From: a phage
Length of the DNA stretch: 52,202 bases
Strand: one strand, 5' to 3'
Assembly: GCA_028524385.1 (NCBI GenBank)
Contig: GCA_028524385.1_3661.2
Shown: in pieces, positions 30,501 through 52,202 of the stretch
Position numbering within the stretch: position 1 is the stretch's first letter
Layout: each line of letters opens with the position of its first letter
Position numbers and translations under genes: made by a program
Notes under the pieces: model-generated
The model's input: only the letters and a program-made list of their open reading frames with translations
Database searches by the model: none
Told to the model about the DNA's origin: nothing

Positions 30501-30966
30501 CCCTTCTGGAGCAATCATTGTGAGAAGGAATGGTAAAGTGGCAGTGTGCGGTAACTGTAATAACGCCAAAGCTTACTCTTCTGTAGCAGGCAAGGAGATT
30601 TCCCGTAACGATGGTAAGCCTATCACGTATGGGGTTATGTACGGGGCACAAAAAGATAAAGTTGCAGATATGCTGGACATCTCTCCAGAGTTGGGACAAA
30701 GGGTAATCGATGCACTCTGGGATGCCAACCCTGGTCTCAAGGGGCGCAAAGAGGATCTGGAGAAATTCTGGGAAGCAACTGGTAAGAAGTTTATCTACTC
30801 TTTTGATGGTCATGCTATCTGGACCAGATCTAAACACTCTTTACTTAATGCATACCAACAGAATGGTGGTGCATCGCTGTGTGACTTAGTTGGGATACTT
30901 ATGCACCACCAAATGGTGAAGCGTGGGTGGTACGATGAAGGTGTTCGTCGTATTATTTATTACCAT
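27574..30966 (+). CDS. family A DNA polymerase (T7 gp5-like), exon 1, containing an intein
   Basis: Exo I FDFE, HCG and HGLMAWGYALG as in T7 gp5 exonuclease domain; motif A IDGSNLEQL...NGDAH; motif B-like GKPITYGVMYG after intein; track ORF continues 2 codons into the intron to stop at 30972. Confidence 0.75.
29587..30555 (+). mobile_element. intein (323 aa) with LAGLIDADG-type homing endonuclease domain
   Basis: Inserted after extein ...SNGDAH; starts CYSGDTQILTEKGWVRFEDL; two LAGLIDADG-like motifs (LLIAIHDDGH, LFIASLSNWDGW); ends VYCVTV...VAVCGN followed by +1 Cys; flanks align to T7 gp5 NGDIH|TKNQ...RDNAKTFIYGFLYG. Confidence 0.65.
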
Positions 30967-31242
30967 AAATAACATTGTGGCTTCATAGAGTAATCTATGT
31001 CGAATAACCTCTTTAACTGCGGGAAGCCTAAACCTTATGGCAAGGTAATCCGCAACGAAGCGCTCAAAAGAGCGAACGCTCAGAGGCCATTCCGAAAGGA
31101 AGTAGACCAGCAAGTGCGGTCGAAATGGGAGGATTCCTGTGGTTGCTTATCATAGGAATATGAGATGGTCCGATCCTACGTGAAAACGTATGGCTATGCA
31201 CGTAATGGTGCGGGGTAGCTTAACGACCTACCTGAACTATTG
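30967..31242 (+). ncRNA. group I self-splicing intron (ORF-less) in DNA polymerase gene
   Basis: 276 nt between exon U30966 and terminal intron G31242; P/Q/R/S core elements aactgcgggaag, aatccgcaacg, cagaggcca, gagatggtcc; IGS gugg can pair with exon end ccau. Confidence 0.65.
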
Positions 31243-39035: not shown

Positions 39036-39225
39036 GCTTAAATCCGCATGGAACATTGCTGTAGGTGACGAGATCCGTATTCCAGGTGGAGAAACTATTA
39101 TGAAGATATCTCGTATCGAGTATGAAGGTGACCGTGTATTCCACATCTTTGCAGAAGATGGTCGAGAAATTTATATACAGGCAGGCTCTCACATCTATAT
39201 TTGTAAGAAAGGGGACGACAAATGA
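39028..39225 (+). CDS. hypothetical protein
   Basis: ATG 39028 (SD aaggatgg) overlapping upstream stop; track ORF 38962..39225 has an N-extension overlapping the previous gene. Confidence 0.35.
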   Translation: MFKLKSAWNIAVGDEIRIPGGETIMKISRIEYEGDRVFHIFAEDGREIYIQAGSHIYICKKGDDK

Positions 39226-39554
39226 CAGAGATCATCGTTTCAACTGCAGGGTATGTATTCCTGACAATCATTGCGCTGGCTATTCTGGTGGCGGTGTATG
39301 GATTTGTTATCCTGCCTATTCTTGAGACATTTAGTTTGTGTCGGTGTTGGAGAAAAGCTTACGGACCACAACCGTGGAAAGACTGGTTCCATTTGGTGCG
39401 TATAGCGTTCTCTTATGCCTATGACCACTCTAGCAGTGCATGCGTAACCGGGTACCATGCCTACAACTGGAACTGGGAAGGGTTAGGGAGATGGACTGTT
39501 ACAAAAACTATACCCTTACGGTTGTACAAAGGAAAGAACACACTGGGAGCCTGA
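39222..39554 (+). CDS. predicted membrane protein
   Basis: 110 aa with hydrophobic N-terminal segment (YVFLTIIALAILVAVYGFVILPIL); SD aaagggga. Confidence 0.45.
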   Translation: MTEIIVSTAGYVFLTIIALAILVAVYGFVILPILETFSLCRCWRKAYGPQPWKDWFHLVRIAFSYAYDHSSSACVTGYHAYNWNWEGLGRWTVTKTIPLRLYKGKNTLGA

Positions 39555-39865
39555 TATTTTAAGTTATCAGGTTGCCAGAGATCAGGAGGATTTCTAAAAT
39601 GGATTTCCTCCTTTTGATATTTTACCTGCCATGATATTTTAAAATCCTTAGAAAATCAGAAAATGGATCGAAAACTAAAATGGATTTTTCAGAGTAGGCG
39701 CGACAAGCTGAATCACTCATCCTATCGTTTGCACCATATTCCAGACCACCATTACAGATTTCCCGCACATGCTTACATCTCGCTACTAGAACTTCCTCCA
39801 CTCACCCTTGACCTTTTATAGCAATAATCCAACCACTATCTTGAAGTTGCGGTGCAGCTTTCCAG

Positions 39866-39887
39866 GTACTCGATCTGTTTTTCGTTT
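39866..39887. repeat. 22-bp direct repeat, copy 1
   Basis: gtactcgatctgtttttcgttt repeated exactly at 39931..39952. Confidence 0.75.
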
Positions 39888-39930
39888 CAAATATTGAATT
39901 TTCTGAAAATTTTTCTCGATAAATTTCTCA

Positions 39931-39952
39931 GTACTCGATCTGTTTTTCGTTT
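39931..39952. repeat. 22-bp direct repeat, copy 2
   Basis: Exact copy of 39866..39887; surrounded by recurring aaaatggat and ttttctgRaaat words. Confidence 0.75.
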
Positions 39953-40188
39953 TCTGAATCGGATTTTCTGGAAATCGTTCCGGATCTCGACCTGAAATTT
40001 TTGGGGACGAAATCGATTTTTCGTTTTCAGAAATGGATTTTTAAAATTTGTATATGGAAATATTTTAGGAGGTATTATTTTATATAGAATTGTCACGGTA
40101 GGTAATTAGCATGCTAACTAAATTTATGAAATGCGAAAAGTTCTCATTTAGAACTTTGAATGATAATCATTCTCGTTTGCAGAATAAC

Positions 40189-40230
40189 GGGCAGGCCCGG
40201 TGATTGTCTCCCGGCCCCTGTTGCCCCGGC
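40189..40230. repeat. GC-rich structured element E1
   Basis: gggcaggcccggtgattgtctccc... ; core ccggtgRttgtctccc shared with E2 and E3. Confidence 0.5.
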
Positions 40231-40328
40231 TTGTTATTATAGTATCACGCAGGACAAAGAAGGCAAGGATTTTTTGCATAAATTTTTAAATGATAATGAT
40301 AACCGTTCTCATTTTATGCATCGCCCAT

Positions 40329-40365
40329 CCCCGGTGGTTGTCTCCCCCGTCACCGGTGCCTGCCG
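40329..40365. repeat. GC-rich structured element E2
   Basis: ccccggtggttgtctcccccgtcaccggtgcctgccg; near-identical to reverse complement of E3 (49271..49322). Confidence 0.55.
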
Positions 40366-40443
40366 TCCTTTCGATAGGTATATTGTGCCACCTGGCGGGG
40401 TCGCTGTCAACACCTTTTCGAAAAAAAAAAATTATAACCAGGT

Positions 40444-40492
40444 GCGCCCACCGCCAGGACCTGGCGGCGGGGCCAACCTGGCAGGTCCGCGC
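40444..40492. repeat. GC-rich element E4 with 17-bp palindrome
   Basis: ccgccagg-a-cctggcgg perfect palindrome; CCTGGCGG word recurs at about 40391, 40653 and 49282. Confidence 0.45.
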
Positions 40493-40707
40493 TATAAAGT
40501 GAACAGCTGAAGAAGAGGTACATAAATGAAAGGTAATATTATCCACCTGGGGAAATATAGTAATTAATGGCACGTGAGCTATCCTCCCTGGTTGAGAGGG
40601 CTAAAACTGAAGCGTTGGAACATAAAGAAGAATACGAAAAAATGATGGTTAACCTGGCAGGGGCGGCGGCTGGAGAATTCTACCCAAAAAATAATTTTAC
40701 ATAATGG

Positions 40708-40736
40708 TTGACAGCTCGGATAGTTCTTGTTATTCT
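40708..40736 (+). promoter_or_regulatory. sigma70-type promoter
   Basis: TTGACA-17 nt-TATTCT upstream of gene 40790. Confidence 0.45.
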
Positions 40737-40789
40737 TATTCTCGCAAGGTGAACAACACCACACTAATTAACAGAGAGGATAAGAAATC

Positions 40790-40987
40790 ATGAACGCATA
40801 CGGAATCAAATCACGTCGCAACGCTCGCCAGGTGGTCACCAATCAAGTGATTTGCCGGGTGGATGTAACCATCAACAACGGGCAAGGCCTTTATAAATTT
40901 CGTCGCGGTCATAGCTATACCCTGCAACAGCTTAACCGTTGCGCCCTGACAAAAGGTCAGATCAACCACTGGTTTAATAAAAAATAA
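40790..40987 (+). CDS. small basic hypothetical protein
   Basis: 65-aa ORF with SD agagagga. Confidence 0.45.
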   Translation: MNAYGIKSRRNARQVVTNQVICRVDVTINNGQGLYKFRRGHSYTLQQLNRCALTKGQINHWFNKK

Positions 40988-49227: not shown

Positions 49228-49258
49228 AAAACAGGGCTTGCAATGGTCCTGTTTTTTG
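49228..49258 (+). terminator. intrinsic terminator
   Basis: acagggc-ttgcaatg-gtcctgt followed by tttttt. Confidence 0.65.
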
Positions 49259-49270
49259 TTATACTTGTTT

Positions 49271-49322
49271 CACGGCAGGCACCTGGCGACGGGGGGGGGG
49301 AGACAACCACCGGGCCTGCCTG
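49271..49322. repeat. GC-rich structured element E3 with G10 homopolymer
   Basis: cacggcaggcacctggcgac-G10-agacaaccaccgggcctgcctg; reverse complement matches E1/E2 cores; G10 at 49291-49300. Confidence 0.55.
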
Positions 49323-49345
49323 TCATATAAGAACTATAAAAACCG

Positions 49346-51415: not shown

Positions 51416-51508
51416 TGCTTTCATATTATGTCATAGAAACACCCGAAGGGGTGACCAAAGGTCACCTGGCATAGCCAGCGAAAGATTATTAACTTGTTAA
51501 TTATTGTC

Positions 51509-51528
51509 ATGCAAACGAATGGCATGGC
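51509..51528. repeat. 20-bp direct repeat, copy 2
   Basis: Exact copy of 51248..51267. Confidence 0.7.
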
Positions 51529-51569
51529 TTATCATATCTGTATAAATAGTTAGCTATGTAAACAGTCAG

Positions 51570-51626
51570 GCATGTCAATTATGTTCAGTGTGTCACCATT
51601 ATGTCATATTGTGTCAGTTATGTCAG
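51570..51626. repeat. helically phased TGTCA repeats
   Basis: T(A/G)TGTCA occurs 5-6 times at 9-11 bp spacing (about 51573, 51583, 51591, 51602, 51612, 51621). Confidence 0.55.
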
Positions 51627-52202
51627 ACAAGTTTTTCTCCTCTTTGTCAAGTGCTGCATGAAAAATTTACAATCTGGTATGGTAGCATTTTTGCGGCCCC
51701 GTTTACATTCAGTGATGTATGTATAAGCCTTGTTGTGTGGGCGTTTAGACGTCTAGACGGTTGGAAGTCCACAGGTCAATATCTAATCTATCGGCTGCTA
51801 ACTATATCCCACACAAATAGTAAGAAATATAATTGTTATGCGTGTAAACAGTAACTCATGTTATCAATCCCTGTATGTGTCGCCAGTGGTGCGCATAATG
51901 GGTATTATGTTAAATTGCCCGTAATGATAATGGTTCTCACAATGATATGTATTCTCATTCCCCCACACAAAATAGATTGCAAATGTTGTGCCACTATGTG
52001 AACGGCCTCACCTATTAATTTGCCTCACTGCCTCGATATTTGAGAATTGTTATAAGAATGAGAAGTATTCCCATTTCGTCCGCCTGGCAGCACTCCAGTC
52101 GCTACGGCTCATAACAGGGCAGAACCAGTCCTATTCAGATATTTCTGGCTGGCTATTCAGGTCTGTGTGGGAAAAGCCAACCCCTCCGGCGGCGGGGAGG
52201 GG

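Follow-up and report, generated by a model that had tools for sequence, protein, structure and literature searches.

In the 52,202-nucleotide phage sequence analysed here (contig GCA_028524385.1_3661.2 of NCBI GenBank assembly GCA_028524385.1; hereafter, the window), a control region of approximately 1 kb, referred to below as the hub, holds two copies, E1 and E2, of a short GC-rich element, and a third copy, E3, lies 9 kb away. Sequence comparison identifies E1, E2, and E3 as a real family conserved in two phage subfamilies, and the E element itself as an undescribed non-coding sequence of ~35-50 nt. From the hexamers that precede them, E1 and E2 are predicted to be the first ~50 nt after leftward sigma-70-type promoters, with E3 representing the same cassette on the plus strand, and the words that follow E1 and E2 in the leftward direction are predicted operators of the host iron repressor Fur. 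Read leftward, the observed layout is promoter, E element, Fur boxes at a fixed spacing, and then an AT-rich stretch, a palindrome, and three iterons; the tandem promoters face away from the neighbouring genes. The reading that we favour, tentatively and at somewhat less than an even chance, is that E1 and E2 serve as leader modules of non-coding leftward transcripts in a Fur-gated, origin-like region. This combination of a Fur-operator array, leftward promoters, a leader element, and iterons in two subfamilies of virulent phages appears to be undescribed.

By its sequence, the window belongs to an rV5-like (Vequintavirus) phage of Escherichia coli. Megablast with positions 39800-40800 matched 122 phage records, nearly all of them Vequintavirus at 80-95% identity, and no similarity to the hub that would indicate a host origin was found in 5,426 E. 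coli genomes. The initial annotation of this DNA concerned positions 40189-40492, which form the right half of an ~1 kb gap poor in open reading frames (ORFs) that opens at the end of the ORF at 39222-39554 and closes with a strong ribosome-binding site followed by the ATG at 40527. The gap, roughly 39555-40526, has the sequence character of a gene-free control region, kept in the Vequintavirinae and the phAPEC8-like Stephanstirmvirinae. In annotated relatives, the genes flanking the 39800-40800 region all lie on the plus strand, and the annotators of the respective GenBank records differ on which tiny ORFs to call inside it. The rV5 genome paper drew the hub just as a "non-coding" box and the origin could not be located; literature searches returned no description of the hub.

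The 15-mer GGAGACAAYCACCGG occurs in exactly three exact copies in the window, at 40197-40211 (minus strand) in E1, 40331-40345 (minus strand) in E2, and 49299-49313 (plus strand) in E3, which is inverted relative to the other two; shuffled sequences gave 1.5 matches at ≤3 mismatches. A sequence-only covariance model of the family recovered E1, E2, and E3 only. The promoter-proximal, GC-rich E1 (40177-40234, minus strand; core GGAGACAATCACCGG) scored 57 bits, E2 (40319-40367, minus strand; core GGAGACAACCACCGG) 30.7 bits, and E3 (49283-49329, plus strand; also with core GGAGACAACCACCGG) 41.2 bits, the 5' half of E2 being nearly identical to E3. With the same model, exactly three copies arranged as in the window were found in the complete rV5 genome. 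The core ccggtgRttgtctccc, as it was written in the initial annotation, is present at 40197-40212 (E1) and 40331-40346 (E2), and the tandem duplication proposed there for the unit was confirmed, with a period of 134-136 bp. A further copy near 49271 had also been noted; this copy exists, its core being that of E3, in an orientation that is the reverse complement of E1 and E2. The inclusion of E4, a hairpin to the right of E2, as a third related element of the hub did not stand, as the family model found nothing in 40430-40500 even at E≤10. The strand on which the elements had been read also required correction: E1 and E2 belong to the minus strand, and any RNAs would come from the strand opposite to that originally read. 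An alignment of Escherichia phage AlexBoehm (MZ501048.1) with window positions 40206-40339 revealed that 134 bp are cleanly deleted there, joining the E1 core to the E2 core, and because of this the E1/E2 unit is regarded as a recombining tandem duplicate. AlexBoehm is also a natural variant with a single E unit and one Fur box fewer.

Each of the three elements is preceded by hexamers that conform at the consensus level to the definition of a sigma-70 promoter, comprising a 16-18 nt spacer, an A at -11, and a T at -7. P(E1) (40239-40266, minus strand) has the -35 hexamer TTGCCT (40266-40261), a 16-nt spacer, and the -10 hexamer TACTAT (40244-40239). P(E2) (40382-40410, minus strand), TTGACA-17-CACAAT, agrees with the consensus at 10 of 12 positions and is one of few strong minus-strand promoter matches in this early region; 29 of its 39 columns are invariant in Vequintavirus. 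P(E3), at 49238-49265 on the plus strand, has the -35 hexamer TTGCAA at 49238-49243 and, after a 16-nt spacer, the -10 hexamer TATACT at 49260-49265. The TATAGT (40238-40243) and TATATT (40379-40384) boxes that the initial annotation placed after the two elements are where it put them; read on the opposite strand, they are instead the -10 regions of these predicted leftward promoters, with TATATT overlapping the -10 of P(E2). The association is general, in that all true E elements (E1-E3 together with ~40 distinct sequences from approximately nine lineages) lie 15-37 nt downstream of a TTGnnn-16/18-nAnnnT sequence in the same orientation, whereas chance loose matches to the E core mostly have no such upstream promoter. 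Among the nine lineages compared, the TTGnnn and TAnnnT hexamers are retained while the spacers diverge beyond alignment. The E3 promoter forms part of a compact cassette (49228-49265, plus strand) in which the terminator hairpin of the upstream gene holds the -35 hexamer TTGCAA in its loop and the -10 hexamer follows directly after the U-run.

That the family would be found in related phages was borne out well beyond the phage of the window, in both subfamilies. In distant BLAST comparisons, only the segment from the Fur boxes through E1 (40130-40237) remained recognisably conserved, at 72-89% identity, with matches in Certrevirus, Seunavirus, and Mydovirus of the Vequintavirinae and in the phAPEC8-like Stephanstirmvirinae. 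The E1 element itself is conserved in Certrevirus, Seunavirus, Mydovirus-like, Hena1-like, and phAPEC8-like phages, and a common order is discernible among their hubs: three to four iteron-like units, one to five Fur boxes, an E1-type element with its minus-strand promoter, a second leftward promoter with a second element, and then the first rightward early promoter. Both Vequintavirus and Phapecoctavirus also retain E3 with its terminator-promoter cassette, at a distance of ~9-10 kb from the hub. Within Vequintavirus, the iterons, Fur boxes, E1, E2, and P(E2) are 0.93-0.95 identical to the window (0.93-0.94 for E1 and E2) and the adjacent genes 0.80-0.95, such that conservation of these hub elements equals or exceeds that of the neighbouring genes; the corresponding values are 0.66 for the A-tract beside E4 and 0.73 for E4, which ranks as the least conserved element of the hub. 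A scan of IMG/VR with the 15-mer core yielded nearly all chance matches, and a search with the upstream protein found only two loci.

At the place of the window's E2, other genera have a nearly invariant leftward element of ~100 nt (GGAGACGCCACCCCACGGCGAAAAGGCGGGGCUAACGUACC...GGUCGGAAGGUGGAUCGCCGGUAG) after the second leftward promoter (for example, at 1380-1500 of locus L007; also in L005, L008, L009, L003, and L006). Its hairpin is variable in length, it has no Rfam match, and it presents one clean compensatory pair, G-C in six sequences and A-U in five. The hubs of Mydovirus-like phages and Seunavirus only also contain a 61-codon leftward ORF (MENAKVITSETMVTLSTWETES...; L003 ~1810-2005 on the minus strand, L008 1500-1676, and L009 1523-1708), which is absent from the window, CR8, phiTE, and phAPEC8.

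The pattern aatgataat..ttctc is found before both copies, as the initial annotation stated. It had been taken there as part of the E unit and is reassigned here to predicted operators of Fur. No other sites in the 52 kb match the Fur consensus GATAATGATAATCATTATC as well as the words in question, aatgataatcattctc ahead of E1 and gataatgataaccgttctc ahead of E2; located at 40156 and 40292, they match 15 and 16 of its 19 positions, respectively, compared to 0.3 sites of at least 15 matches expected. With the consensus in its 9-1-9 form, AATGAnAATnATTnTCATT, and ≤2 mismatches allowed, four sites were observed vs 0.075 expected in the window, two of them in the hub (40159 and 40295, with one and two mismatches among the 16 specified positions) and two in the gene-free end of the window (51941 and 52057). 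In the complete rV5 genome, matches at this level are confined to the hub and a 2.6-kb non-coding gap. Three boxes are distinguished in the hub of the window. Fur-like box 1 (40130-40148; AATGCGAAAAGTTCTCATT) has three mismatches to the 9-1-9 consensus and starts 29 bp before Fur box 2 (40159-40177; AATGATAATCATTCTCGTT), which has one mismatch to AATGAnAATnATTnTCATT and 15/19 matches to GATAATGATAATCATTATC. Fur box 3 (40289-40313) involves two overlapping registers beginning at 40289 (three mismatches) and 40295 (two mismatches) and, with 16/19 matches to GATAATGATAATCATTATC, is the best in the window. The spacing of these boxes is strict: their starts are 29 bp apart in six lineages (the window and five others), and the distance from the start of the last Fur box to the E core is exactly 40 bp in seven lineages, and 38 bp for E2.

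A perfect palindrome, AATGAGAATCATTCTCATT, is present in the hubs of related genera, and this exact sequence occurs at least 120 times in a bacterial collection with one genome per species, compared to approximately four occurrences by chance (author's estimate). The bacterial sites lie from a few to ~250 bp upstream of genes for TonB-dependent receptors, FTR1, FeoB, ABC transporter components, ZnuA, and members of the Fur family. Ten neighbouring ORFs picked by eye from 42 were subjected to a Pfam scan, which returned two TonB-dependent receptors, FTR1, FeoB, two Fur-family proteins, an ABC ATPase, a solute-binding protein, ZnuA, and one without a Pfam match. Because of these iron-gene neighbours of the identical bacterial palindrome, the hub words are treated as Fur-family operators. 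They resemble the operators of Enterobacteria (consensus GATAATGATAATCATTATC, or AATGATAATnATTATCATT in the 9-1-9 form), such as the arrays at iucA of the aerobactin system, fhuA, and fepA-fes, in being clustered 19-bp palindromes, with 15-16 of 19 positions matched, or 14-16 of 16 in the 9-1-9 form, and in sharing the palindrome found upstream of bacterial iron-uptake and Fur-family genes. They differ in their presence in the gene-free DNA of a virulent phage, their strict 29-bp phasing, their position downstream of conserved promoters, and the lack of an iron gene nearby. The sole phage precedent for a Fur box in the literature searched is upstream of the sitABCD operon of temperate lambda-like phages (PMC6969025), and no description of Fur boxes in virulent coliphages was found there.

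The Fur boxes lie 55-75 nt downstream of the well-conserved promoters, which are on the other strand, and the only promoter to overlap a box is a weak candidate, TTGAAT-18-CAGAAT (40156-40185, plus strand), positioned over Fur box 2. This permits an unlikely alternative in which TTGAAT-18-CAGAAT would be a Fur-repressed rightward promoter and E1 the 5' leader of a plus-strand transcript induced by iron starvation, converging with P(E1) to form an iron-dependent switch; the transcript may read into the early genes that begin at 40527. The order of a -35 hexamer, a Fur box as the spacer, and a -10-like hexamer is as such a promoter would require, and the absence of indels from the Fur box-to-E core block across seven lineages fits a promoter with its initially transcribed unit. 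However, the critical A at -11 is present in only ~7 of 12 lineages, the hexamers of the other ~5 being CTGAAT, CGGAAT, CCAAAT, or others; no equivalent is evident for E2 or E3; the plus-strand folds of E1 and E2 are no better than those of shuffled sequences (z-scores of -0.4 and 0.0); and neither a terminator nor a ribosome-binding site lies nearby.

The number and placement of the boxes also bear on a second alternative, considered highly unlikely, in which the arrays act mainly as a decoy: replicating phage DNA would titrate Fur and thereby derepress host iron uptake, with the E elements being unrelated promoter leaders. Multicopy DNA bearing Fur boxes relieves repression of the Fur regulon, an effect on which the Fur titration assay is based. 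Consistent with this view, strong Fur boxes are clustered and found only in two gene-free regions of the genome, arrays of one to five boxes with 29-bp phasing recur across genera, and the phage encodes an iron-dependent ribonucleotide reductase. A decoy would not, however, need the exact 40-bp coupling to the E core, and the box number varies from one to five, with SSE121 having only one.

Beyond the Fur boxes in the leftward direction are the features that give the hub its origin-like character. At 39856-40041, in a stretch of 31-37% GC, lie three iteron-like direct repeats; each measures ~65-74 bp and includes TACTCGATCTGTTTTTCGTTT. Within Vequintavirus their identity to the window is 0.945, and units of the form CTCGATC..TTTTCG..CGTATT occur in three to four copies in the hubs of CR8, phiTE, SSE121, and Mydovirus-like phages. 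Situated at 40103-40120, with the iterons on one side and the Fur boxes on the other, is an 18-bp palindrome, TAATTAGCATGCTAAYTA, that is invariant or nearly so in 14 Vequintavirus sequences and looks like an operator. The hub has sequence features of an iteron-type or transcription-activated origin, namely at least three direct repeats by an AT-rich stretch in gene-free DNA with promoters nearby. With respect to replication proteins, rV5 encodes a T7-like DNA polymerase and a gp4-like primase-helicase.

Given this layout, the leader-module reading would work as follows. Host RNA polymerase would start leftward at P(E2) and P(E1) and produce a G-rich leader, corresponding to the E element, before meeting the Fur operators ~20 nt past the E core (at a spacing of 38-40 bp from the core, with boxes phased at 29 bp), beyond which lie the AT-rich stretch and the three iterons. 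Occupancy of the operators by Fe-Fur would then gate the length of the non-coding leftward transcripts, and these transcripts would activate or prime replication on the model of the T7 primary origin. In such a working, the hub would be most like the transcription-activated origins of phages T7 (primary origin) and T4 (oriE, oriF, and oriG). At the T7 primary origin, the promoters phi1.1A and phi1.1B stand in tandem ahead of an AT-rich region, while T4 oriF, oriG, and oriE are transcript-primed origins, with iterons at oriE. The hub, too, has tandem promoters directed towards gene-free, AT-rich DNA with repeats, the replication genes are T7-like, and iterons are present as at T4 oriE; the hub differs in that its promoters are of the host sigma-70 type, that an ~50-nt GC-rich leader and Fur operators intervene between the promoters and the AT-rich region, and that there is a second candidate region.

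This second region is located in the gene-free end of the window (51500-52202), where another Fur-like cluster (51923, 51941, and 52057) is found. It corresponds to the start of the 2.6-kb non-coding gap of rV5 (DQ832317.1, 104013-106618), situated between converging transcription units and containing many short direct repeats (of the ACTGTTTAC and ATGTCA types) and several minus-strand promoter matches.

A number of observations weigh against the leader-module reading. The mechanism is drawn from the layout of the sequence, and the promoters and Fur sites are predicted from consensus matches. Fur boxes usually overlap the promoters they control, and those of the hub are 55-75 nt downstream instead. 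No Fur boxes or iterons lie beside E3, and because of this the E element cannot be specific to an origin. The non-coding hub contains neither DnaA boxes nor sites for IHF, the only near DnaA match (TTATCCACC, one mismatch) being at 40539, inside the first gene to the right. The published skew analysis of rV5 did not point to the hub, and the 2.6-kb gene-free region, with its Fur boxes and repeats, could be a second control region and possibly the true origin.

The folding of the elements counts on both sides. In the window, the promoter-sense strand is the more stable in all three elements, at -21.6 kcal/mol (z-score -1.7) vs -18.1 kcal/mol (-0.4) for the complement of E1, -16.6 kcal/mol (-1.6) vs -12.0 kcal/mol (0.0) for E2, and -27.6 kcal/mol (-2.8) vs -22.2 kcal/mol for E3, with a modest excess in stability over shuffled sequences. 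Across lineages, z-scores ranged from -3.9 to +0.6 and the promoter-sense strand was the more stable in only 14 of 22 elements. RNAalifold detected no shared structure, giving a three-pair consensus with essentially no covariation, and in an alignment-free test of the flanks, cognate pairs (-11.7 kcal/mol) did not exceed swapped pairs (-12.2 kcal/mol), with 3825 of 5000 permutations equal or better. The conserved RNA structure anticipated in the initial annotation, to be sought by folding with covariation across related phages, was consequently not supported. Of the three options it had offered, viz. a small structured RNA, a regulator site, and a component of an origin, parts of each survive: the family is conserved, its position after sigma-70-type promoters would be a transcribed one, and iterons and an AT-rich stretch adjoin it. 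Conservation resides in a non-palindromic sequence, GAGACAAWCACC and then CTGCCCGYYATTC, that runs into the Fur box, and it would be equally compatible with a protein-binding site.

The E core may accordingly be viewed as a double-stranded DNA operator for a phage protein, either a replication initiator or a regulator of the three early promoters, and not as an RNA element at all; we assign this alternative a minor, though real, chance. It would account for conservation in sequence and not in structure, for a non-palindromic core that is invariant within a genus, for the fixed 40 bp to the Fur box in seven lineages, as in a composite nucleoprotein site, and for only three copies per genome. 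On the other hand, an operator does not require the constant orientation to the promoter that is observed, no candidate binding protein was identified, and the Mydovirus-like and GAP31 lineages have a 2-nt insertion in the core (GAGTACAAAACACC vs GAGACAAWCACC) with the flanking CCGG/CCGG stem kept. A hairpin loop would accommodate such an insertion more readily than a rigid protein site would.

The transcribed position of the elements downstream of promoters, together with the conservation of a putative loop sequence, could also indicate that the E1-E3 RNAs are small regulatory or antisense RNAs, with E1 and E2 being antisense to rightward read-through, and mRNAs of the host or the phage might be targeted through the seed GAGACAAWCACC. 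The inversion of E3 relative to E1 and E2, which gives its leader 15 nt of perfect complementarity to RNA from the plus strand at E2, would be in keeping with this proposal, as would leftward transcription against the direction of the genes, which recalls the oop RNA of lambda. It is nonetheless regarded as decidedly unlikely, since no terminator follows E1, E2, or E3, neither an Rfam match nor covariation was found, and the window contains no complementary site besides the E copies themselves. The comparison with oop is instructive in both directions. Like oop, the hub unit is non-coding, has a host-type promoter, opposes the flanking genes, and lies beside origin-like repeats; oop ends at a defined terminator and acts as an antisense RNA on cII, whereas for the hub transcripts neither terminator nor target was found.

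Two other families of phage elements share features with the hub modules. In T4-type phages, an early sigma-70 promoter is joined to a GC-rich hairpin in small, repeated cassettes termed PeSL (promoter-early stem-loop), and the hub modules likewise duplicate and recombine, as seen with the E1/E2 tandem, the AlexBoehm deletion, and the location of the E3 promoter in a terminator loop. In contrast to PeSL, the GC-rich element of the hub follows the promoter, is conserved in sequence across subfamilies, is limited to three per genome, and has Fur boxes coupled to it. Among promoter-proximal leader RNAs, HK022 put and lambda nut act in cis to modify RNA polymerase. The E element resembles them in directly following a promoter in fixed orientation with a conserved sequence in its putative loop; it differs in having no stem-loop pair supported by covariation, no boxA or boxB, and no downstream terminators, and the comparison, made by Rfam search only, gave no match. 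Several likenesses noticed by eye were dropped as untested or unconvincing; these comprised the P22 boxB loop GACAA, the RfaH ops element, the T7 phi10 leader GGGAGAC, the CRISPR repeats of E. coli types I-E and I-F, CsrA GGA motifs, T7 primase sites (TTGTC), and a 10-mer of RNase P RNA.

A very small chance is accorded to the view that the elements amount to copies of a duplicated promoter cassette and are themselves functionless, or that the region is coding through the ORFs at 40160-40510 or 40286-40573. The tandem duplication is evident, AlexBoehm lost a copy by recombination between the cores, and several GenBank records annotate ORFs across the region. Yet two subfamilies retain the E1 module although the remainder of their intergenic DNA is unalignable, and with respect to coding, the ORF is interrupted, shortened, or frameshifted in relatives and lacks a Shine-Dalgarno sequence, while annotators disagree on which ORFs to call. 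Specifically, the ORF at 40160-40510, which starts inside a Fur box, meets a stop after seven codons in a Mydovirus-like phage, is reduced to 25-26 codons in Seunavirus, and is frameshifted by the 134-bp deletion of AlexBoehm; it was rejected as a gene, and the initial statement that the region lacks credible ORFs thus held.

E4 (40437-40482, minus strand) is a hairpin of -36.8 kcal/mol (z-score -3.5) followed on the minus strand by UUAUAAU(11) and, by sequence, looks like a leftward intrinsic terminator. Its palindrome was described correctly in the initial annotation, the arms being at 40447-40458 and 40460-40471. Just 4 of 14 relatives possess the hairpin, in a region of 105-171 nt that is hypervariable in indels, and E4 is a lineage-specific feature outside the conserved machinery; it shares only CCTGGCRGG words with the P(E2) spacer. 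The A11 tract described as separating E2 from E4 does occupy 40421-40431; it is reassigned as a minus-strand T-tract between the E4 hairpin and P(E2), where it supplies the hairpin with a U-tail and doubles as an A/T-rich, UP-like sequence immediately ahead of the P(E2) -35. Both its length and its sequence vary among relatives. CCWGG words, to which attention had been drawn as Dcm sites, are indeed enriched locally: five occur in 40189-40492 compared to 0.85 expected, a number reached in 4 of 2000 dinucleotide shuffles. All five are in the P(E2) spacer and E4, outside the E1 and E2 cores, and the Dcm idea found no further support. With 117 copies in the whole window vs ~67 expected, the words are not avoided, and a logic of restriction avoidance was rejected; the local excess arises from hairpin arms built on CCAGG/CCTGG.

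Known RNA classes were likewise not detected. ARAGORN found no tRNA in the window, and no Rfam family matched the hub of the window or those of four relatives at the gathering threshold or at E≤1-5; the sole Rfam match of the window is a group I catalytic intron (RF00028; 64.7 bits over the full-length model) at 30957-31192 on the plus strand, 9 kb from the hub. A tRNA or tRNA remnant had been considered because a distant BLAST match overlapped an annotated tRNA-Met, and it was rejected with the ARAGORN result, the annotation appearing misplaced. The record concerned, Klebsiella phage vB_Kpn_K45PH128C2 (OY978796.1), has tRNA-Met, tRNA-Ile, and tRNA-Lys annotated over the non-coding hub at 1504-2199; these are unsupported by ARAGORN and their coordinates appear misplaced. 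The pseudo-ToxI locus of phiTE was also set aside, as it is situated at 106.7 kb in that genome, outside the hub. To the right of the hub, the first gene (40527-40704; ribosome-binding site GAGGAGG, ATG at 40527) is split in the window into a 13-codon ORF and a 45-codon ORF (40567-40704). Relatives keep it as one continuous ORF (MKGNMIPLENVAINDAEAIALVEKA...), and the split reflects a frameshift or a sequencing error.

The Fur-box palindrome also occurs in unrelated viral contigs of IMG/VR (L141, L142, L153, L155, and L169), the pair in L141 being 29 bp apart. In these contigs the boxes are flanked by DnaA-box-like sequences (TTATCCACA/TGTGGATAA), and nearby ORFs resemble, as judged by N-terminal sequence alone, a T7-type primase-helicase (L141) and a P4-type primase (L142). 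Origin regions of mobile elements may recurrently contain Fur boxes, and the occurrence of Fur pairs by DnaA boxes and primase genes would suggest that Fur is a general, unrecognised host factor at such origins.

For the rV5-like and phAPEC8-like phages, it is possible, albeit on balance doubtful, that these virulent phages have built in Fur-operator arrays, phased at 29 bp and set 40 bp from the E element, with which they read host iron to gate early non-coding transcription or the initiation of replication, or with which they titrate Fur and so reprogram iron uptake by the host. The hub presents itself as a conserved candidate with three testable parts, namely the leftward promoters, the E core, and the Fur boxes. 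Iron is limiting in the gut and during infection, and rV5-like phages are broad-host-range candidates for therapy and biocontrol. If Fur does bind these sites, lytic phage development would be linked to the iron status of the host, phage efficacy could be affected, and a host metal sensor would join the short list of host factors that act in phage control regions.

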